This document shows, piece after piece, positions 1,316-10,918 of a DNA stretch of 11,057 bases. Numbering within the stretch: position 1 is the first letter of the stretch; every line of letters starts with the position of its first letter. Both the position numbers and the translations under genes were made by a program. Origin of the DNA: a virus; UHGV virus genome UHGV-0152719; one strand, given 5' to 3'. The notes beneath the pieces were generated by a model that was not told the origin of the DNA, did not search any database, and worked only from the letters and a program-made list of their open reading frames with translations.

Positions 1316-1858
1316 TTACTTGTCTTTATCCGGCTGAAACTTATCAGGCACATTTCCGGTAGTTTCCATCAGATAATCGGACAGTATTCGCGGGATGTTT
1401 TCATCAAGTTTTGTGCATGCGTTACAGGCTCTGACAACTTCCTTTTTAAGTCCATCCAGCATAGCGGGGGTAATCTGTGGGAAGCGCCTTTGCATGGTAA
1501 GCGGCAAACTGTCCATGATTGAAGAAATCTGACTCGCCAGTTTTGAAAGCACATATATACAAAATTCCGTACTAATAACGTCGCCGCGTTCGCGCTCGTT
1601 TTTAAGCTCCTGCGCCTCCGCCTGCGCTGTCAGCAATCTGATCCTGACTCGCAAAAGTTCATCATTATCAATCTCGCCTTTGTCGTCTGTAATCTGGTTA
1701 ATTGCATTGCTAACCCGATTGTCTATTACGCTGGCAACATCATAAAACGCCTCGCGGCCTTTACGTTCAACGGGAGTCACTCCCCACTTGTCGAACGCTG
1801 TCGCACTTACACGGCAGCTTTGCGCCATGTTTTTTTTGTTCATCAGGTACGATTTCAT
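1316..1858 (-). CDS. terS: Terminase small subunit, lambda Nu1-like
   Basis: C-terminal two thirds (LTAQAEAQELKNERERGDVISTEFCIYVLSKLASQISSIMDSLPLTMQRRFP...IPRILSDYL) closely parallels lambda gpNu1 (LTRAQADAQELKNARDSAEVVETAFCTFVLSRIAGEIASILDGLPLSVQRRFP...IPGLLSEYI); N-terminus (MNKK...FDKWGV...EAFYDVASVI) resembles the Nu1 winged-HTH more loosely. Start uncertain: GTG 1870, ATG 1858 (GGGGA SD-like upstream, chosen), ATG 1843 (aligns with Nu1 MEVNKK). Confidence 0.8.
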   Translation of the reverse strand: MKSYLMNKKNMAQSCRVSATAFDKWGVTPVERKGREAFYDVASVIDNRVSNAINQITDDKGEIDNDELLRVRIRLLTAQAEAQELKNERERGDVISTEFCIYVLSKLASQISSIMDSLPLTMQRRFPQITPAMLDGLKKEVVRACNACTKLDENIPRILSDYLMETTGNVPDKFQPDKDK

Positions 1859-1968
1859 CAATATCCCCACTTAAGTAATGTTTCAGGTTGGTGTGTTGGT
1901 GTTATCTTTCCCTTTTTATTCATAGAGATAGAGCGAAAAACAAAACCACCACCAGCACCCGAAAAAGG

Positions 1969-2012
1969 CTCATAAATAGCGAAAACCCGCGCGCCTTCCG
2001 CCCCGTAGCCTG
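1969..2012 (-). other. Lambda-like cos site (cosN-equivalent plus adjacent conserved flank), upstream of terS
   Basis: Minus strand reads caggctacg-gggcggaaggcg-cgcgggttttcgctatttatga; lambda cos as recalled is caggttacg-gggcggcgacct-cgcgggttttcgctatttatga. 22 contiguous nt identical downstream of cosN, left half of the 12-nt cosN identical, right half differs at 6 positions. Position (about 150 bp upstream of terS start) mirrors the lambda cos-Nu1 arrangement. Confidence 0.6.
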
Positions 2013-2059
2013 CCGGATCGCCGGAAAGGACCCGCCAGCCAGAACGGGCCCTAATTTCA

Positions 2060-2454: not shown

Positions 2455-2796
2455 TTACACACGAGCCAGCGGCTGAACAGAAATACCTGAGCCAACAAAC
2501 GCGGCAACCTTTGCCGACAGTTCTTTTACAGACTCAGGCCAGTTCAGAGCATCAACATTTAAAACGCCTGTCTTATAAACCTGTGCCTGTGTTTTTTTCG
2601 CTGTGTCGATTTGTACAGCGGAAACATAAACCGCTTTACCTACGCTCGAACCATCCCATACCACCAGTGCACCTGTTGCATCTTCCTGCATCAGTGGCGT
2701 AAATGCAGGAATTACCCCTTTATTAGCTGAAAATATCCCCAGCGTAGTCACCAGTGCTTCAGTGCCAGCCATGAGTTCAGTGTAATGAGTAGCCAT
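2455..2796 (-). CDS. Head decoration protein, lambda gpD-like
   Basis: 113 aa; TPLMQEDATGALVVWDGSSVGKAV and NWPESVKELSAKVAAFVGSGISV parallel lambda gpD [24 protein letters not shown] and [33 protein letters not shown] Shine-Dalgarno before ATG at 2796. Confidence 0.8.
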   Translation of the reverse strand: MATHYTELMAGTEALVTTLGIFSANKGVIPAFTPLMQEDATGALVVWDGSSVGKAVYVSAVQIDTAKKTQAQVYKTGVLNVDALNWPESVKELSAKVAAFVGSGISVQPLARV

Positions 2797-2805
2797 TGCT
2801 CCCCC

Positions 2806-3852
2806 TTAGCCAATGCGAACGGTAACAAAACGATTGATGCGGGCCGGTATTGGCTGTGGTGCTGAATGTGTCTGCACATATTCAATAGCCGGATCACCAG
2901 GCACAATATAGTTTTTCGGTGCAAGTTCGGCTTTAGTCAGCCCCATTCGGATTAGCTCCGGATCCTGAATACCGCCATAGGCGACAATCCCCTGAAGAGC
3001 CGTATTGCCAAGCACCATCAAATCAGGATCAAGGAAATGTTTTTCAGTTCCGTCCTCGTCGGTATAACGCCCGCTGTATACAACAATCGCAACATCGCCC
3101 ATATACCCTTTAAAACTCACCGAATCACCAAGGTCTTTAAGAGCCGTTTCCAGTTCGGAATTAGAACCACGACGGGTATCCAGAGCCTCTTTTATCGCTC
3201 TGAATGAACGGTATTTCTTCCATACATTACCGCCCATAATGATGATATTAGTGACGCCCTCACTAAATTCTGCGTAGCTCTCAATATCATCATTTGGATC
3301 AAAAGTTTCTTTATCCTTACCTGACCACTCAGCACCGCCAGACTGAGTGATGATATTTTGTGGTTTAATATTCCAGTCCAGCTCATAACGTTCAATACCA
3401 TCGCCCTCAATGATATTTTTCCCCGTTGTGATTGCCTGAACGGCAAGCCATTCAATACGTGCACGAATAGCTTTAGCCTGATTTACAATCGCCTGTTTAA
3501 CTTTAATATTACGCGCTCCAAAAGCATTGTATTGCTCAGGTGATACACCAGCAGGGCGCACAGCTAACTTATTTGGATCAATGCTGCTTTTCGGCTTCAT
3601 ATAGCCTGGACGAATTGTTTTTGATTCGTACCCTTCGTCACGTGAAACTTTACTACCCACCATAGGAGAACAAAACGCTGCAATTGGGATATTTGGATCG
3701 TCGATTGTATCAAGAATAATATCGCGCGATTCAAACATTACCGAGCGAGTGAAAAACAAACTGGTAAACAACGCATTTAATTTTTTTTGCACATCTTCAG
3801 CATTAGCCACCTGCACAAGCTGTGTAGGCGAATATAAATCAACCATACTCAT
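2806..3852 (-). CDS. Major capsid protein, lambda gpE family
   Basis: Strong similarity to lambda gpE: NIITQSGGAEWSGKDKETFDPNDDIESYA ... RSFRAIKEALDTRRGSNSELETALKDLGDSVSFKGYMGDVAIVVYSGRY vs lambda NITQSGGTEWSKRDKSTYDPTDDIEAYA ... RSFKAVKEKLDTRRGSNSELETAVKDLGKAVSYKGMYGDVAIVVYSGQY. The ORF extends to 3933, but the MSMVDLY start (3852) matches the gpE N-terminus MSMYTT; the alternative ATG at 3846 has better SD spacing. Confidence 0.85.
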   Translation of the reverse strand: MSMVDLYSPTQLVQVANAEDVQKKLNALFTSLFFTRSVMFESRDIILDTIDDPNIPIAAFCSPMVGSKVSRDEGYESKTIRPGYMKPKSSIDPNKLAVRPAGVSPEQYNAFGARNIKVKQAIVNQAKAIRARIEWLAVQAITTGKNIIEGDGIERYELDWNIKPQNIITQSGGAEWSGKDKETFDPNDDIESYAEFSEGVTNIIIMGGNVWKKYRSFRAIKEALDTRRGSNSELETALKDLGDSVSFKGYMGDVAIVVYSGRYTDEDGTEKHFLDPDLMVLGNTALQGIVAYGGIQDPELIRMGLTKAELAPKNYIVPGDPAIEYVQTHSAPQPIPARINRFVTVRIG

Positions 3853-4017
3853 CCTCTTTACATTCATTACAAATAATTGTGAATATATTCTATTACCGAT
3901 GTCTGCTATGCGAATACATGCAACCAAGTGCAATGTTGTATAAAATATGCCGTAACAACTTCAGTGCTGATAATTCGTGTTAATGTATTTACTTCCTTTG
4001 GTTGGGATTTATGTAGC

Positions 4018-4057
4018 ATGCCGGAAAATCTATTTTTTTCCGGCATCTTTTTGTTTG
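4018..4057 (+). terminator. Hairpin plus T-tract (intrinsic-terminator-like) in the ssb-capsid intergenic region
   Basis: atgccggaaaa / ttttccggcat inverted repeat (4018-4046) followed by ctttttgtttg; the U-tract is on the plus strand, so it would stop antisense or convergent transcription. Function uncertain. Confidence 0.4.
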
Positions 4058-4063
4058 CAGAAT

Positions 4064-4486
4064 TTAAAACGGTATATTATCGCCGTACGGATCATCATTC
4101 CCCGACTGTTGTTTTGCCCTGTTCAGTGCGTCAGTGGCCTGCCCCTGCTGGCCTTTTTTGCCGCCCGGTCGCGCCGTTCGCGCACTGATTACGCTGTCTG
4201 CGATAACCTGCCAGCCCCGCCGCGTTTCGCCGTTCTGGCCTGTCCACTGGCTTACCTGCATGTTACCCGCCACGCTCACCAGTTCGCCTTTGTGGTGTTT
4301 TGCCAGTGCGTCGGCCTGTCTGCCAAACGCCAGGACGGATAACCACATCGTCGCCGTTCCGTCATCTGCCTGGCTGCACGGCAGGGGAACCGCCATACTC
4401 GCCATCGCCATTTGTGTCCCTTTGCTGGTGGTCTTTAACTGCGGGTCAGCCACCAGCCGCCCGTAAGCCGCTATCTGTGCTGTCAT
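4064..4486 (-). CDS. ssb: Single-stranded DNA-binding protein (SSB-like OB fold with acidic C-terminal IPF tip)
   Basis: WLSVLAFGRQADALAKHHKGELVSVAGNMQVSQWTGQNGETRRGWQVIADSV parallels E. coli SSB [52 protein letters not shown]; Gly/Gln-rich linker; C-terminus DDPYGDNIPF resembles the SSB DDDIPF tail. Start ATG overlaps the upstream gene's stop (ATGA). Confidence 0.7.
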   Translation of the reverse strand: MTAQIAAYGRLVADPQLKTTSKGTQMAMASMAVPLPCSQADDGTATMWLSVLAFGRQADALAKHHKGELVSVAGNMQVSQWTGQNGETRRGWQVIADSVISARTARPGGKKGQQGQATDALNRAKQQSGNDDPYGDNIPF

Positions 4487-4740
4487 GCTGTCTGCTCTCC
4501 GGTTTTAACATTGATGGTTGTCACCTGTTCCGCTTCGGCAATCTCCCGTTCTGTCAGCGTGGCAAAGTTTGCAGCCGCCGTTGTCATGAATGCGCTTATC
4601 AGTTCTGGATGTGCTTTCGCGTATCCTTCCCCGGCGTTGCGATCTATTGCCTTAATCGCCACCCTTAGCCAGTGTTCAGCCATATCAAGGGCACGGTAAT
4701 GTGGCTTTATATGTTTGTTCAGTTTTCCTGATGTGTGCAT
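4483..4740 (-). CDS. Hypothetical protein (85 aa)
   Basis: ORF with GAGGGGG SD-like sequence upstream of ATG at 4740; stop overlaps ssb start (translational coupling); no family recognised. Confidence 0.5.
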   Translation of the reverse strand: MHTSGKLNKHIKPHYRALDMAEHWLRVAIKAIDRNAGEGYAKAHPELISAFMTTAAANFATLTEREIAEAEQVTTINVKTGEQTA

Positions 4741-4786
4741 TTTTATTTTTACCCCCTCGTTTAAAAAGTTTTGAAATGTGGTGCAC

Positions 4787-5014
4787 CTCCTCTACCTCTC
4801 TACCTAATCATCTTTCAGGTCAGTAATGGCGCGGCTTTCAGATGGGTAGAGGGCTTTCGGGGCCCTCTACCCATCCTCTACCCGCCCCTCACAAATGACC
4901 TTAATCATGGTGGAGGAGGTAGAGGGCTTTTATTTGCCTTCTACCTGGCCCTCTACCTGCTTATCATATTGAATAATATATATTTATTTTCTTTAGGTAG
5001 AGGAGGTAGAGGGC
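4787..5014. repeat. Iteron array with AT-rich core: putative origin of replication
   Basis: Ten copies of an 8-bp motif in both orientations: CCTCTACC at 4789, 4864, 4875, 4950; variants TCTCTACC 4797 and TTCTACC 4939; GGTAGAGG at 4845, 4918, 4996, 5006; three carry the longer form GGTAGAGGGCTTT. AT-rich stretch 4958-4995. Sits immediately 3' of the primase-helicase gene. Confidence 0.65.
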
Positions 5015-5026
5015 TTTTGTCTAAAA

Positions 5027-6781
5027 TTATAAAAACGCGTCGCAATCCTCTGTTGTTGTCACATTGGTTTGCGTAAGTCCTTTAACCCTGCGCGTTATAT
5101 ATTCACATCCGTAAACTTTCGCCGCTGGCTTCATGGCCTTGCTGAAATCAGCCACGTTTAGCGGCTTGCTTCTGCCTGCGTATGCCATAAACGCCAGATA
5201 GACGCGGTAAAGGCTGTTTCTGGTCGTGTACTTCACGGAATCGCCACCGCCACCCATCATCAGGCCGCGCGCTTCCTCCAGAAAATTCAGAAACTGGCAA
5301 AACTCAATAACCGGATCCGTCTGTTGCTTTATCGCCAGTGCTTCTTCACCGTCGCGCTGTTCAATCAACAAATGTCGCGCCTTTTCTGGATCAGCAAAGT
5401 TTGCCAGCAATCTGCGGATAATCACGGGGATTTCAGCCGCGACCTTCTCCGGTAAATCCTTGTCCTTTTCTGCCTCGCTAACGATATTGTCGAAGCGGAA
5501 AATTACGCGACGACGTGACACACCTCCGGCCCGTTCGGTGAATATCATCGGGTTATTGTTGGTAGCCAGCACCACCGCCCTGATTACCGCCGTAAAACGC
5601 TTTTCATATTTCGGGTTTATTTCCACGGGGTCGCCGCCCGTGATTTTCTTGATGCCCGTGCCTTCGCCTGTATATTTCGGCTGGTCAGCCAGGACGATAA
5701 GACGACTCCCGACAACCTGAGCACGCCCACCAGCATCATCAAGCGAAGTCATTTCAGCGCTTACCGTGTTCTGTTTCCCTGCCAGAAGGCTGGCTATGTG
5801 CGTGAATGTACTCTTTCCGCTCCCGCCGTCTCCGGTGGCCTCAATAAACATCTGCCAGTCGTACCGGTTCGCCATAATCATGTACAGCGCGGCACATATA
5901 CGCATCATCTTGCGTGGGTCTTTTCCGGCTGCGTGATCAAGCCATTTATGAAAGTTTGGCGCGTTGTCGCGGATGTTCTCCCCTGGTGCTGGTGGCGTGT
6001 ACTCAATGCCGTTGTGCGTGGTGATCCAGTTCTCCGGCGAGTGCGGGGAAAATTCCCCCGTTTTCAGATTAAGCACACCATTAGTGAACGGTAGCAAATC
6101 GCCAGACGGCTCGCCCATTGGTTCGGCAATAACTTTTAACGCTTCCACGGCGTTATTGATTGCGCGCTTGCTGAAAGTGGCCCTGTGCTCTGAATAGATC
6201 GCCACCATTTCGCGGCTAAGTTCCATTGTGCTGACCGGACACCATACCCCGCCGCGCCATACGTGAACGATTTCACTTTCAGGATGTACGCAAACGCCAT
6301 CAAAGCGATCGGCAAGCAACTGCGCGCGCTCACTGTCCGCCATCTGCGAAAGTTGCGCCTTTTGCTTTACCGGAAGCTCAATGACCAGACCATCAGAAAG
6401 ATTCTGGCGTTCACGGGCCAGATATTCGCGCCAGTTCTGCACCTCCTGGCCGTGCATACCCTCAGGATAAAAATTTGCATCCTGTACGCCTGCTGCCGCC
6501 AGCTTCTGACCAATCGCCTTTATCATTACAGGCGCAAGATATCCGGCCCTGTATATGCGTGCTGATTTTCGGCCTTCCGGCACAATTTGCAGATTATCCA
6601 GTTCGGATAGCTGCTGCTCCCCAAGCCACACAGGAGGCTCATTATCTCCGGCCATACGCGCATCATGTTCCTGCCATTGTTTCGCGTGTGCCCAGGCATC
6701 ACTACCCGCAAAAATAATGACTTCTGTTCCTTTGTGTTTTATGCCGCGTGACTGCTGTTTTACGTTCGGTGCCAGTTTCAT
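5027..6781 (-). CDS. Primase-helicase, phage/plasmid P4-alpha-like (Walker A GDGGSGKS)
   Basis: 584-aa ORF; Walker A motif TGDGGSGKST followed by helicase-like region; N-terminal primase-like portion; typical P4/PICI pri-rep size and position next to iterons; start ATG overlaps upstream gene stop. Confidence 0.85.
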   Translation of the reverse strand: MKLAPNVKQQSRGIKHKGTEVIIFAGSDAWAHAKQWQEHDARMAGDNEPPVWLGEQQLSELDNLQIVPEGRKSARIYRAGYLAPVMIKAIGQKLAAAGVQDANFYPEGMHGQEVQNWREYLARERQNLSDGLVIELPVKQKAQLSQMADSERAQLLADRFDGVCVHPESEIVHVWRGGVWCPVSTMELSREMVAIYSEHRATFSKRAINNAVEALKVIAEPMGEPSGDLLPFTNGVLNLKTGEFSPHSPENWITTHNGIEYTPPAPGENIRDNAPNFHKWLDHAAGKDPRKMMRICAALYMIMANRYDWQMFIEATGDGGSGKSTFTHIASLLAGKQNTVSAEMTSLDDAGGRAQVVGSRLIVLADQPKYTGEGTGIKKITGGDPVEINPKYEKRFTAVIRAVVLATNNNPMIFTERAGGVSRRRVIFRFDNIVSEAEKDKDLPEKVAAEIPVIIRRLLANFADPEKARHLLIEQRDGEEALAIKQQTDPVIEFCQFLNFLEEARGLMMGGGGDSVKYTTRNSLYRVYLAFMAYAGRSKPLNVADFSKAMKPAAKVYGCEYITRRVKGLTQTNVTTTEDCDAFL

Positions 6782-7077
6782 TTTTTACCTCTGAATCCGT
6801 TAATCATGGTTTTCATTTTCTGGATATTTCCCCACGCTTTTTCCCTGCTGATGGGCTTACTGCGGGGTGCGGCATATACCAGGGAAAAATCACGCCGGAA
6901 CTGATAAACAGGCATCACGCAGTCATAGCTATACCCCTCACGGCGGTAAGTGATGCGCCGTTCTGCCACGCCTTTAATCGTTACCGTGCCGCCGTATTTA
7001 TCGCGGTAAATATCGCCGTTCATAAATTCAGGACGAGCGGGGCCGCTGGCATTAACACCAGTATTTTTCATTCCCAT
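6778..7077 (-). CDS. Hypothetical protein (99 aa), translationally coupled to primase
   Basis: ORF whose stop overlaps the primase ATG (ATGA); no recognised family. Confidence 0.5.
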   Translation of the reverse strand: MGMKNTGVNASGPARPEFMNGDIYRDKYGGTVTIKGVAERRITYRREGYSYDCVMPVYQFRRDFSLVYAAPRSKPISREKAWGNIQKMKTMINGFRGKK

Positions 7078-7508: not shown

Positions 7509-7691
7509 TTACACCCCTTTTAATTCATGTACTGCTGCAATAATTACATGTGATAAACCTGCTTTACCGGAATTACTGATTAGTGAATCAATCGCCGCTT
7601 GCATATTAACGGCCTTCACGTTCTGCGTTATTCCGATGGTGTAGCCGCGTTTATTAACTGCACGGGCAAATACGCGGAAGGTTTTAAGCAT
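7509..7691 (-). CDS. Hypothetical protein (60 aa)
   Basis: ATG at 7691 overlaps the stop of the upstream 65-aa gene (ATGCTTAA); operon context. Confidence 0.45.
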   Translation of the reverse strand: MLKTFRVFARAVNKRGYTIGITQNVKAVNMQAAIDSLISNSGKAGLSHVIIAAVHELKGV

Positions 7692-7881
7692 GACTCACTC
7701 CCTGGCGGATTTTTGCAGCGAATACAGCAACACAACCGGACGGGCAACGGCTACGCGCTTCGCGTTCCGTCCAGGCGGTTACGTGGATGATTTGAGATTC
7801 TCCGGCACTCAGTGCCAGAAAACGCCACACAAAGGCCGTTTGTGTGTGTACAAGGTGTGGTATATGATTTACAGCAACCAT
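7684..7881 (-). CDS. Hypothetical protein (65 aa), first gene of the minus-strand replication operon
   Basis: Corresponds to the C-terminal 65 codons of the 356-aa track ORF; internal ATG at 7881 is preceded by a canonical AGGAG SD (ctAGGAGccgttATG); the remaining upstream part of the long ORF is low-complexity and antisense to better-supported plus-strand genes. Confidence 0.5.
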   Translation of the reverse strand: MVAVNHIPHLVHTQTAFVWRFLALSAGESQIIHVTAWTEREARSRCPSGCVAVFAAKIRQGVSHA

Positions 7882-8071
7882 AACGGCTCCTAGTTTACGT
7901 TGTTGGTTAGACGCCCCGTATGTGTTCCCAGCACTGCGGGGCGTTGCTCTTTGTATTTCAACAATCCTTTCGGTGTGTTTCATGTTATGAGCACATGAAA
8001 CACACGTCAAGGCTTTTTGTATTTCTTTTTTTGTGTATACTGAAACACACCGATGATTAGGAGTTTCAGAA
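7882..8071. promoter_or_regulatory. Divergent promoter/operator region between the minus-strand replication operon and the plus-strand regulator genes
   Basis: Perfect 12-bp inverted repeat gtgtgtttcatg-(9 bp)-catgaaacacac at 7973-8005 plus a third half-site tgaaacacac at 8041-8050; minus-strand sigma70-like promoter TTGACG (8005-8010) -17 bp- TAACAT (7982-7987) overlapping the palindrome; plus-strand -10-like TATACT at 8036-8041; 8-bp stem hairpin acgccccg...cggggcgt (7911-7944) in the minus-strand leader. Confidence 0.5.
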
Positions 8072-8377
8072 ATGGCAACGGCTAACAAAAACGCAAAATC
8101 ACAACTGACAACTGTCAGAGTCCCACTAGATGTTATGCAAGGGATGGAATCCGTTAAGCTGGACGGTGAAAGCAATGCCGGATTTATCGTAACCGCCATG
8201 CGCGGAGAAATAGCCCGCCGCCAAGCAGAAGGCAGCGGAGAAAATCCCCTTGTGTCGTCACTGGATGCCCTGGCTAAGGTCGAACAAATCGGCATCAAAG
8301 CAGCCGAGGAGATCGGGCAACTCGTCACCGTCGCGCGTGAAGAACTCCAGCGACGCAAGGTCAAAGAGCATGAATAG
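8072..8377 (+). CDS. Putative ribbon-helix-helix-like DNA-binding protein (101 aa), candidate island regulator
   Basis: AGGAG SD 8 nt upstream of ATG; N-terminal TTVRVPLDVMQGMESVKLDGESNAGFIVTAMRGEIARRQ fits a beta-strand/helix/helix Arc/CopG-like pattern (inference only); divergent from the replication operon. Confidence 0.5.
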   Translation: MATANKNAKSQLTTVRVPLDVMQGMESVKLDGESNAGFIVTAMRGEIARRQAEGSGENPLVSSLDALAKVEQIGIKAAEEIGQLVTVAREELQRRKVKEHE

Positions 8378-8434
8378 CCAATATCAGCGCCATAGTTTGA
8401 GGAACGCAGGCGCATTGCTTTACAGGACAGCACC

Positions 8435-8614
8435 ATGAGCGACACAGAATCAACCAAAACACCATCACCAACTCGTAAGAGACGACGCAAAAATATAGCG
8501 CATGAACATGAATCAGAAAGATTCGCACCTTGTTCGTTTGCTCTTGAGAAATTCCTTAAAGAGCACAGGAAAAAGCTCTCGTTGCAAACCTTGGAACGAA
8601 CCAAATCTGACTGA
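8435..8614 (+). CDS. Hypothetical small basic protein (59 aa)
   Basis: Not in the supplied ORF track (below its apparent length cut-off); ATG at 8435 with AGGA-like SD upstream, in line with the preceding gene and followed by an intrinsic terminator; contains a KRRRK basic stretch. Confidence 0.4.
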   Translation: MSDTESTKTPSPTRKRRRKNIAHEHESERFAPCSFALEKFLKEHRKKLSLQTLERTKSD

Positions 8615-8670
8615 TCACATTGCCCACCAGCCGCAAATGTGGCATTGTTGGTGATGCTTTTGTTTTCCCT

Positions 8671-8700
8671 TGTTCCCACTGGCGACCCTTTTGCGGTCGC
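8671..8700 (+). terminator. Rho-independent terminator of the plus-strand two-gene unit
   Basis: ggcgacc-cttttgc-ggtcgcc stem-loop followed by tttgttttg. Confidence 0.6.
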
Positions 8701-8710
8701 CTTTGTTTTG

Positions 8711-9289
8711 TCACTGAATGCGGTTACCAAAGTAAAACTCAGGCTGATATTCACGTATCAGCCTTTTTTCTTCTTCCTCCAGCTCACGCTTTTTGCGCTT
8801 ACATGCCTGTAGCTCCCTCCCCTTCTCGCTGGCACTTATTTGATATTGCTCTTTACGGCGGGAAAAATCCTGTAATGCACCCCACGGGATACCATAAGCC
8901 CCCGTTTTTCTGATACCTGGTATCACATTTCTGAATACCCAGTTACTGAAACGATGAGCAAATGTGCCCGGCGTCGTTGCTTTGCGGCTGCGGGCTATTA
9001 GTTTGTAGAAACCTGACTCAGAGATAATTCTCATATTCTGATTTCCTCCTGGGGTGTAAGTTAAATTTACTCCCTTTTCATCATCATCAAGCATCTGCAA
9101 CGCCGTACGCGAATTGGTTAGTTCCAGCGCAGCACAAACATCTTTTGCAACAAACCACGGATCGCCGTTCAGATACACCACACGAACGTTCACACTATCA
9201 AAGCGCAGAACGACGAGATCACGAATATCGCAGAATTTTTTCACTGGACGAGCGTACCCCTTGCCCGTCACGGCAATATTTTTATTCAT
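8711..9289 (-). CDS. Bro-N domain protein (phage antirepressor-like), 192 aa
   Basis: N-terminal region VVLRFDSVNVRVVYLNGDPWFVAKDVCAALEL...LQMLDDDEKGV matches the Bro-N/antirepressor N-terminal domain pattern; C-terminal charged coiled-coil-like tail. Confidence 0.75.
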   Translation of the reverse strand: MNKNIAVTGKGYARPVKKFCDIRDLVVLRFDSVNVRVVYLNGDPWFVAKDVCAALELTNSRTALQMLDDDEKGVNLTYTPGGNQNMRIISESGFYKLIARSRKATTPGTFAHRFSNWVFRNVIPGIRKTGAYGIPWGALQDFSRRKEQYQISASEKGRELQACKRKKRELEEEEKRLIREYQPEFYFGNRIQ

Positions 9290-9307
9290 CGCGTTTTTAC
9301 CTTATAG

Positions 9308-9333
9308 ACAAAAAACCCCTCGTGATGAGGGGT
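9308..9333 (-). terminator. Hairpin with flanking A/T tracts (bidirectional terminator-like) between alpA and the Bro-N gene
   Basis: cccctc-gtgat-gagggg stem-loop (9316-9332) with acaaaaaa on one side (a T-tract on the minus strand) and tattattt on the other. Confidence 0.5.
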
Positions 9334-9345
9334 ATTATTTACTGG

Positions 9346-9603
9346 TTATTGCTGTTTTGTTTTTCCAGGTTTCCATCCAGGATGCCACTCACCACGGATC
9401 CATGCCTGAACCTCTGAAAGTCGATACCCTGCAGCACGTTCACCGATCTTGATACGTCGCGGGAATTTACCTGCCTGCTCCATTTTCCAGCGTGTTGAGT
9501 TTGCCAGCGTGGTAAGTGCTATGCACTCTTTTTCACGAATGAACCGATCAATGTCCTTCATTGTGCGCAAATCGTTTTCATCAACAAGAGAATAAATTGC
9601 CAT
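9346..9603 (-). CDS. alpA: AlpA-family transcriptional regulator / excisionase-like protein
   Basis: 85 aa with HTH IALTTLANSTRWKMEQAGKFPRRIKIGERAAGYRLSEVQAWI typical of AlpA (prophage CP4-57 regulatory protein family); AAGAGG SD; immediately downstream of the integrase. Confidence 0.8.
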   Translation of the reverse strand: MAIYSLVDENDLRTMKDIDRFIREKECIALTTLANSTRWKMEQAGKFPRRIKIGERAAGYRLSEVQAWIRGEWHPGWKPGKTKQQ

Positions 9604-9604
9604 A

Positions 9605-10846
9605 TCACACCACCTCTTTATTAAGCTCGATAACGTTGTTGTTAAATCCTGCTATCGTATTAAGGTAATTAACCCACATATTAAGCACCTCAAGTTTTTT
9701 CTTTATATGCCTGCTTTTATTGTAAACACCAGCAACCCCTTTCACTTTATGACCTAAAAGAAGTTCGACAATATAAGGATCCGCCCCCATATCATTAAGC
9801 GTAGTGGAAAATGTGCGCCTGAAATCATGTATGCACCACAAGCCATTAGTATCATGACCAAGACGCCTGCATATTCTGTTTGCAGCCCCTGTTATTGTCG
9901 CCCTTTGCAAAGCACAACCGACAACATAACCGCAATTTTTTGTTTCTGCGTAAAGATTAACGATCCATTGTTTTATTCCGTCAGGAACAGGCCTTACTAT
10001 AGCCTCCTTGTTTTTGCTGTGCTCTTTTGGGACTGTCCATACCCAGTTTTTTAAATCCCATTCGTCCCAGGTGGATAGCCTCGCCTCCTGCTGTCGGCAA
10101 CCAAACACCAGGCAGATAACCATTATTCTTCGGTTATATATTGATGACAGAGTTAGCAAATTATTACCGTAAGCATAAGACCATACATCAGCGGTTTCAT
10201 TGATATTAAGAACGCGATCCCTTATACCGGATGAGCGCCCGACATAACTTACGTTAATATCTCCAAAGGGATCGCACGCGATGTATTGCCTGACGCGACA
10301 AAAACGCAACGCCTGTTTGATATCAAGAAAAATTGCACCAGACATAACAGGCGCATTTTTTTTGATCCTGTCAAAGACGGTAAGCCATGTGTGTAATTTG
10401 CACTGTTCTATAGCCATATCACCGATATAGGGGAAGATATGCTTTTCAAATCGTTTTATTAAATATTCATGCTCTTTTCTGGCTGTTGTGGCGTGATTGT
10501 CGTACCAGTAAAACAGCGCATCCCTTACGGTCACTGGTTGCATAGTTTTTTCGGCAGCAAGTTTTATTTGCCTGCGGGGGTCCAGATTTTCAGCCAGCCA
10601 TTCACGGCACTGATCACGCATGCGCCTGGCCGTTGCAAGAGACATGTCAGGATAGCGACCAAGTGTAAGCCATACCGGAGGGGATTCCCTGCCACCAAGA
10701 CGATAGTAAAAAACAAAGCTGATCCCCCCAACCATGCTTACACGCACAGACAACCCGCGCCCATCCGCTATTGTTTTTTGTTTGTCCTGCCGTTTTCCGA
10801 CAAGACTCTTTAACAGTTTGTCACTGAGTTTGTTTTCAATAGCCAT
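9605..10846 (-). CDS. int: Tyrosine site-specific integrase, P4-type
   Basis: 413 aa; N-terminal P4-integrase-like arm-binding region (MAIENKLSDKLLKSL...GRGLSVRV); catalytic-domain motifs including HDFRRTFST and the GVAGVYNKS tyrosine region; GAGGG SD upstream. Confidence 0.9.
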   Translation of the reverse strand: MAIENKLSDKLLKSLVGKRQDKQKTIADGRGLSVRVSMVGGISFVFYYRLGGRESPPVWLTLGRYPDMSLATARRMRDQCREWLAENLDPRRQIKLAAEKTMQPVTVRDALFYWYDNHATTARKEHEYLIKRFEKHIFPYIGDMAIEQCKLHTWLTVFDRIKKNAPVMSGAIFLDIKQALRFCRVRQYIACDPFGDINVSYVGRSSGIRDRVLNINETADVWSYAYGNNLLTLSSIYNRRIMVICLVFGCRQQEARLSTWDEWDLKNWVWTVPKEHSKNKEAIVRPVPDGIKQWIVNLYAETKNCGYVVGCALQRATITGAANRICRRLGHDTNGLWCIHDFRRTFSTTLNDMGADPYIVELLLGHKVKGVAGVYNKSRHIKKKLEVLNMWVNYLNTIAGFNNNVIELNKEVV

Positions 10847-10864: not shown

Positions 10865-10918
10865 TTGCAATACACACCCACCCCGATCGCCAATTTGCAA
10901 TACACATTGCAATACACA
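10865..10918. repeat. Three direct copies of TTGCAATACACA motif upstream of int (partner of 89-110 repeats)
   Basis: ttgcaatacacac 10865-10877, ttgcaatacaca 10895-10906, ttgcaatacacaaa 10907-10920; same motif and orientation as the two copies at 89-110; candidate att-arm / recombination-directionality or int-promoter operator sites. Confidence 0.5.

Follow-up and report, generated by a model that had tools for sequence, protein, structure and literature searches.

Positions 4741-5026 of UHGV-0152719, an iteron array 3' of the initiator gene, as the probable replication origin of an EcCICFT073-family phage satellite

We analysed an 11,057-bp stretch of DNA, the viral genome UHGV-0152719 (here called the window), and found that positions 4741-5026 very probably serve as the vegetative replication origin of a Gram-negative PICI of the EcCICFT073 family, a reading to which we assign a probability of about 0.9. 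The case is built on the repeats in this region, on their clustering and selective conservation, on the homology of the region to the tested EcCICFT073 ori, and on the domain homology of the adjacent initiator. This agrees with the preliminary description of this DNA, which had proposed a replication origin like those of P4 and the PICIs. The kind of origin is already known (Fillol-Salom 2018, PMC6092414) and its homologue has already been tested; our comparative results extend the existing descriptions of PICI, P4 and SaPI origins. The only new details are an 11-slot map of the repeats, a hexamer as the conserved unit, a GG-flanked iteron subtype and an invariant 21-bp spacer at 4821-4841.

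Judged by its sequence, the window is itself such an island, that is, a phage satellite. All of its real genes lie in one direction on the minus strand; int, AlpA and initiator genes are present, together with a helper-type cos and terS, tail and lysis genes are absent, and the size is that of an island of about 8-12 kb. The gene set and order agree with those of the annotated CFT073, IHE3034 and AVS0542 islands, and relatives sit at the known PICI att sites cspD-clpS and ycfD-phoQ (ycfD being the gene also called roxA). Matches to some portion of the window were present in about 2,400 of the 5,426 complete E. coli genomes, and the best match in a complete E. coli RefSeq genome shows 95.5% identity over 93% of it. 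The origin region alone is 99.3% identical to that of strain AVS0542, and some E. coli genomes carry up to four copies of this region. Table S1 of Fillol-Salom et al. 2018 (PMC6092414) likewise gives a gene set and order for the EcCICFT073 family that agree with those of the window.

The repeats occupy the 286 bp that separate the 584-aa gene from the 85-aa gene (Table 1). The array extends from 14 nt past the stop codon of gene 5027-6781(-) to 48 nt before gene 4483-4740(-), which bears out the earlier placement of the array 3' of the initiator gene. The octamer GGTAGAGG/CCTCTACC is present in eight exact copies in the window, every one of them inside 4789-5012; the expected number is 0.13, and eight copies were reached in none of 200 shuffles. 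Three more octamers inside the array differ from it by one mismatch (GGTAGAGA at 4797-4804 on the minus strand, GGTGGAGG at 4909-4916 on the plus strand and GGTAGAAG at 4938-4945 on the minus strand), while just two such octamers are found in the remainder of the window. Together, the eight exact and three one-mismatch copies give 11 slots, which occur in both orientations, mostly as doublets 8-12 bp apart, and are spread over 224 bp. The preliminary description was thus right that the repeats are clustered and face both ways, but its count of ten has to be raised. It had also noted three copies of an extended form, and the 13-mer GGTAGAGGGCTTT is indeed found in triplicate, at 4845, 4918 and 5005. 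The hexamer GGTAGA behaves in the same manner: all 10 of its copies in the window fall at 4791-5010, against an expectation of 2.5.

Within the array, the 38 bp at 4958-4995 are 87% A+T and overlap 4962-4999, which has the least stable duplex of all 38-mers in the window (nearest-neighbour dG -35.8 kcal/mol; window mean -51.6, sd 4.1). The A+T-rich core had been described as bracketed by the repeats; its composition is confirmed, but it lies off-centre, near the initiator end of the array, with two slots toward the initiator gene and nine beyond. A consensus scan of 4400-5400 detected neither a sigma-70-like promoter nor an intrinsic terminator. At the origin there was no consensus match to a DnaA box, with two one-mismatch DnaA-like 9-mers at the edges only, and no consensus match to an IHF site, which fits an origin that is independent of the host initiator. 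Known RNA families and tRNAs were absent from the window. When the origin region was folded as single-stranded DNA (initiator-sense strand) we obtained z = -7.75; we do not count this as a structured element, since it is the by-product expected from inverted iterons.

Table 1. Features of the origin region and genes of the island (window coordinates)
Feature	Position	Strand	Remark
Intergenic origin region (ori)	4741-5026	-	Homologue of the region deleted in EcCICFT073 pri-delta-ori
Slot 1, GGTAGAGG plus extension GCTTT, closest to initiator stop	5005-5017	+	Hexamer intact in 59/61 distinct relatives
Slot 2, GGTAGAGG	4996-5003	+	Intact in 59/61 relatives
A+T-rich stretch, presumed DNA-unwinding element	4958-4995	.	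87% A+T; overlaps least stable 38-mer
Slot 3, GGTAGAGG	4950-4957	-	Exact copy
Slot 4, GGTAGAAG, hexamer core intact	4938-4945	-	One mismatch
Slot 5, GGTAGAGGGCTTT	4918-4930	+	Exact octamer plus extended form
Slot 6, GGTGGAGG, degenerate in UHGV-0152719	4909-4916	+	TCTACC intact in 56/61 relatives
Slot 7, GGTAGAGG	4875-4882	-	Intact in 60/61 relatives
Slot 8, GGTAGAGG	4864-4871	-	Intact in 59/61 relatives
Slot 9, GGTAGAGGGCTTT	4845-4857	+	Exact octamer plus extended form
21-bp spacer CTGAAAGCCGCGCCATTACTG, between slots 9 and 10	4821-4841	-	Near-zero entropy in 61 distinct relatives
Slot 10, GGTAGAGA	4797-4804	-	One mismatch; hexamer present
Slot 11, GGTAGAGG	4789-4796	-	Intact in 60/61 relatives
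Tyrosine integrase (int)	9605-10846	-	
AlpA-type excisionase/regulator	9346-9603	-	
Bro-N protein	8711-9289	-	
Icd-like gene	inside 7684-8754	-	
DUF4222	6778-7077	-	
Initiator (584 aa), the Pri-Rep of the PICI literature; annotation 'DNA primase family protein'	5027-6781	-	Domain matches
85-aa protein, phrog_1231, first gene past ori, overlaps ssb start	4483-4740	-	
Single-stranded-DNA-binding protein (ssb), replication module	4064-4486	-	Pfam SSB 5.5e-16
Lambda-E-like capsid protein	2806-3933	-	
Head-decoration protein	2455-2796	-	
Nu1-like small terminase (terS)	1316-1870	-	

The closest tested counterpart of this region is the EcCICFT073 origin. Window positions 4741-5026 align end to end with L003 9997-10284 (EcCICFT073), and also with the corresponding intergenic region of EcCIIHE3034. 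In both islands DUF4222 is followed by pri-rep, ori, the 85-aa gene and ssb. Their intergenic regions measure 286 bp (UHGV-0152719) and 288 bp (EcCICFT073) and agree in their flanks and in the invariant spacer; each has 11 GGTAGA/TCTACC slots, the offsets of which correspond. Their sequences have nevertheless diverged: the origins are only 62% identical, compared with 94% for the initiator gene and 84% for the downstream gene, and the central 220 bp are only about 50-60% identical. The hexamers persist in this most divergent piece of the neighbourhood, with 51 of 66 hexamer-core columns matching against 78 of 159 other columns. Homogenisation has given most iterons of UHGV-0152719 the form GGTAGAGG, extended to GGTAGAGGGCTTT in three of them, whereas those of EcCICFT073 and EcCIIHE3034 are the hexamer followed by CA or TA; in addition, EcCICFT073 has slot 4 in the opposite orientation and UHGV-0152719 has a degenerate slot 6.

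According to published descriptions, a PICI origin lies immediately 3' of rep and has sets of iterons on either side of an A+T-rich region (PMC6092414, PMC9371898, PMC10111431). The region that we describe lies 3' of its initiator gene and in the same transcriptional direction, has iterons on both sides of an A+T-rich stretch and is homologous to a tested ori, as in origins of the EcCICFT073 type. In the published experiments, a temperature-sensitive plasmid persisted at 44 C with the intact EcCICFT073 replicon but not with the rep mutant (delta-pri); pri-delta-ori gave significantly fewer colonies at the restrictive temperature, a reduction and not an abolition (PMC6092414). The check suggested in the preliminary description has in this way been carried out on a close relative. 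We mapped the construct primers from the supplementary table of that paper (PMC6092414) onto CFT073, which places pri-ori at L003 8196-10307 and pri-delta-ori at 8196-10000. The reverse primer of pri-delta-ori ends 4 nt beyond the primase stop codon, and with this end at 10000 the published deletion is exactly the homologue of window 4741-5026. A point against the origin reading is that the relative in which the ori was tested has iteron flanks unlike those of UHGV-0152719 (GGTAGA followed by CA/TA, not by GG).

Conservation was assessed in loci recovered by an IMG/VR search with the initiator (80 loci); a separate genome-contig search gave 3 loci. The comparative set consisted of the IMG/VR loci plus CFT073, AVS0542, a Shigella locus and the window; with one too-short locus dropped it comprised 83 related loci, which represent 61 distinct origin sequences. 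Across these 61 distinct origins, from the first slot to the last, mean column entropy was 0.25 in the hexamer cores and 0.74 in the remaining columns, or 0.84 in the spacers once the invariant spacer was excluded. The difference between core and spacer was significant by the Mann-Whitney test (p 5e-10, and 7e-13 without the invariant spacer). Most slots are intact in 56-60 of the 61 distinct origins, and the apparent exceptions are one-base alignment shifts. The two bases that follow the hexamer vary: they are GG in UHGV-0152719, CA/TA in CFT073 and mixed within single origins elsewhere. Since these bases are not conserved, we conclude that the selected unit is the hexamer, and not the octamer that the preliminary description had given as the repeat, positions 7-8 of which vary both between and within related origins. 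We take the octamer and the 13-mer of UHGV-0152719 to be a lineage-specific homogenisation; the GG-flanked iteron type is present in only 13 of the 83 sampled relatives.

Two other parts of the region are maintained among the relatives. The A+T-rich gap occupies the same slot in all of them, with a mean of 76% A+T. The spacer at 4821-4841 shows its near-zero entropy next to neighbouring spacers that vary, and the motif CTGAAA occurs at the equivalent position both in the two P4 crr repeat units and in vB_KppS-Ant. Conceivably the spacer is a second cis element, one shared with P4 crr.

The gene next to the array encodes a protein that combines helicase and origin-binding parts. We found Pfam matches to D5_N (2.4e-16), to DUF5906, the SF3 helicase P-loop family (4.4e-10), and, weakly, to Pox_D5 (1e-3), together with an NCBIfam match to TIGR01613, the P4-family 'primase_Cterm' model. 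The Walker-A motif GDGGSGKS falls at about residues 317-324. In a comparison of sequence against solved structures, residues 220-432 matched SaPI5 PriRep 7OLA (E 6e-15) and residues 488-579 matched 1KA8 (E 2.8e-7), a 100-residue chain deposited as 'putative P4-specific DNA primase', which we take to be the origin-binding winged-helix domain of P4 alpha. The initiator is 95% identical at the protein level to EcCICFT073 Pri-Rep and, in residues 141-579, shares 40.5% identity with P4 alpha, the homology to alpha beginning only at residue 141. Residues 1-140 (window 6362-6781) gave no Pfam, NCBIfam or PDB-sequence match at E values up to 10, and a structure model of the initiator from its single sequence (pLDDT 36) was too poor for fold comparison. 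With the N-terminal 140 aa lacking any match, the primase part of the name is not demonstrated. Of the earlier label 'primase-helicase', then, the SF3 helicase stands, and origin-binding parts are detected as well, but no primase domain was. SaPI5 PriRep is described as a self-loading replicative helicase (PMC9371898).

The C-terminal 45 aa of the initiator (encoded by 5027-5160) come in variants, with NVADFS in UHGV-0152719 and NVNDFG in EcCICFT073 in the segment that aligns with 1KA8. All 38 loci with NVNDFG have hexamers flanked by CA/TA. Nearly all of the remaining 45 combine NVA(D/E)FS with an origin that is GG-flanked or mixed, the exceptions being one NVAEFS locus of the CA/TA type and one locus with a frameshifted C-terminus. 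We do not accept this association as functional co-variation, because the two sites are less than 150 bp apart and the 'mixed' origins vary at positions 7-8; it is possibly just physical linkage.

We extended the comparison to a distant set of elements whose initiators are 40-52% identical, namely those of Serratia aquatilis, Morganella morganii, the induced element vB_KppS-Ant and P4. In Serratia and vB_KppS-Ant, and more loosely in Morganella, the stop codon is followed by two repeats, an A+T-rich gap of about 38 bp and then alternating doublets, and in Serratia and vB_KppS-Ant the offsets of the repeats from the stop codon agree to within a few bases. The repeat itself is TGTTCAC in Serratia, TGTTCAT in Morganella and TGTTCACC in vB_KppS-Ant and P4 crr. 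A fixed layout with a repeat that changes with the initiator lineage is as expected of initiator-binding sites. In the Pasteurella satellite Pmp7, there were no clear iterons downstream of the primase. A third type of repeat, AAAAGTGCAA/TTGCACTTTT, forms an array immediately past the 3' end of the P4-alpha-like primase gene in a full-size temperate phage, Serratia phage Scapp (L090 2932-3429).

P4 offers both likeness and contrast. According to its GenBank annotation, P4 crr lies immediately 3' of alpha and consists of doublets of 'ori type 1 repeats', and it resembles the array of UHGV-0152719 in having octamer-scale repeats that end in ACC, doublets in both orientations and CTGAAA in a spacer. 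The initiator in turn resembles P4 alpha in its helicase and its C-terminal, winged-helix origin-binding parts, but the N-terminal primase region of P4 alpha has no counterpart in its first 140 aa. The iterons differ (TGTTCACC in P4, GGTAGA(GG)/(CC)TCTACC in UHGV-0152719), and those of P4 form two separate clusters, ori and crr, both needed in cis, and a terminator separates crr from alpha, whereas UHGV-0152719 has a single cluster that holds the A+T-rich element and no terminator. The origin would work like P4 ori/crr and the SaPI origins but, given its different iteron and single cluster, is not of the P4 type in the strict sense.

Clustered repeats, a winged-helix initiator and an adjoining A+T-rich unwinding element are also features of iteron plasmids such as pSC101, R6K, F and P1. 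The initiators of these plasmids, however, are not helicases and need DnaA boxes, IHF and the loading of DnaB/DnaC from the host; the initiator of UHGV-0152719 differs from them in having its own SF3 helicase. The SaPIs provide a closer match of design: 6-12 short iterons immediately downstream of rep with an A+T-rich region among them, at least two iterons per side in opposite directions, and recognition through a C-terminal winged helix with no loader (PMC9371898). The origin of UHGV-0152719 shares this design, and its helicase domain is homologous to SaPI5 PriRep 7OLA. It differs from the SaPIs in host phylum and iteron sequences, with no detectable origin-to-origin sequence similarity, and in the placement of the A+T region, approximately central in SaPIs but near one end here.

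A mechanism can be proposed on the model of P4 alpha, as reportedly set out by Ziegelin et al. in 1993 and 1995 and by Yeo et al. in 2002. Upon induction by a helper phage, the island operon would be transcribed and the 584-aa initiator, encoded just upstream of ori, would be made. Its C-terminal winged-helix domain (residues ~488-579) would bind the GGTAGA/TCTACC hexamers in the 11 slots, and its SF3 helicase domain would assemble on the DNA without a separate loader and open the 38-bp, 87% A+T stretch between slots 2 and 3. The island SSB, encoded two genes downstream, would then coat the opened strands, and host polymerase would copy the excised circle. In this scheme we infer direct binding, the melting site, self-loading and the source of the primer from what is described for P4 alpha and for the SaPI Rep proteins (PMC9371898).

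Position alone does not prove that synthesis starts at the array, since P4 has crr at this place and its ori at a distance. In P4, crr is a cis-acting region required for replication, with initiation at the distant ori. The array could by analogy be a crr-like cis-acting enhancer that is bound by the initiator, with synthesis beginning elsewhere in the island. It occupies the crr position, immediately 3' of an alpha homologue, the doublet layout of crr and the CTGAAA motif are common to both, and the annotated P4 ori lies some 4.5 kb away from crr. The ori of P4, however, bears the same iterons as its crr, whereas the window is without GGTAGA outside 4791-5010, and the array, unlike crr, holds the least stable A+T segment of the window. 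In addition, the EcCICFT073 pri-ori fragment, which contains only this region, was enough for plasmid maintenance (PMC6092414). We consider an enhancer of this kind unlikely, although the positional match to P4 crr makes it the only alternative that carries some weight. Less likely still is that the repeats are operators through which a regulator (AlpA, the 85-aa protein or the initiator) controls the ssb and capsid genes, and are not an origin. The array is directly upstream of the next gene, with its last doublet 48-63 nt from the start codon, and initiators that bind iterons, as in the iteron plasmids, often autoregulate. This explanation has to contend with the lack of promoter-like and terminator sequences noted above, with a layout of 11 sites over 224 bp around an unwinding-prone core that is that of an origin, and with a repeat sequence that follows the lineage of the adjacent initiator in distant relatives. 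Gram-negative PICIs are moreover described as unidirectionally transcribed, and the delta-ori phenotype is a replication phenotype (PMC6092414). The repeats may still have a secondary regulatory role beside that of an origin.

Two further explanations we regard as very improbable, and we rejected both. cosB and att arms typically contain repeated protein-binding sites, and the island encodes a Nu1-like small terminase, so that the array might be imagined as a packaging (cos/pac) site for that protein or as a set of arm-type sites for the integrase. A lambdoid cosQ-cosN is nevertheless present away from the array, at 1970-2035(-) and a short way upstream of the terS-like gene 1316-1870; it consists of a cosQ-like GGCGGGTCCTTTCCGG and a cosN-like variant, GGGGCGGAAGGCGCGCGGG. 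A different repeat, TGCAATACAC, is present at both window ends, beside int, and there is no GGTAGA either at cos or in the window-end repeats. The plus-strand ORF at 4771-5076 (101 aa), if it were coding, would make the repeats a coding repeat, and an open frame is indeed present in the window. It starts with TTG, however, runs antisense to the operon and overlaps the 3' end of the initiator gene, and its translation is of low complexity and driven by the repeats. The frame is not conserved: in none of 63 distinct relatives do at least 90 antisense codons stay open, most being cut to 50-66 codons, and the RefSeq relatives, the closest genome included, have no gene annotated there. This supports the preliminary description, which had dismissed the long ORF as an artefact, and the ORF should not be called as a gene.

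For annotation, our reading of 4741-5026 marks the origin and its cognate initiator in a family of phage satellites that is very common in E. coli. The comparison among relatives illustrates how initiator and origin specificity co-diverge, with the fixed 11-slot layout carrying GGTAGA in the EcCICFT073 family and TGTTCAC in P4-like relatives. A more specific, joint reading would be that the GG-flanked iterons and the matching C-terminal variant of the initiator define a separate specificity group and that the spacer at 4821-4841 acts as a second cis element; we regard this combination as doubtful. If it were true, related PICIs in one cell could avoid competing for each other's initiator.

Several observations concern the rest of the island. 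The 66 bp of the cos are 100% identical to those of two candidate helpers, the Escherichia phages YDC107_1 and PhiR46_1. The TGCAATACAC repeats lie at 91-113 and 10868-10918, the integrase gene adjoining the right end; in the att region they would probably serve as arm-type sites to which the integrase binds. The 130-bp interval between ssb and the capsid gene (3934-4063) is without the perC regulator gene and the small ORF of EcCICFT073 and AVS0542. Finally, the 356-aa ORF with a GTG start at 7684-8754 is probably over-called: it overlaps the Bro-N gene, its family match (Icd-like cell-division inhibitor) is limited to the last ~50 residues, and relatives annotate a gene of about 65-105 aa at this locus.
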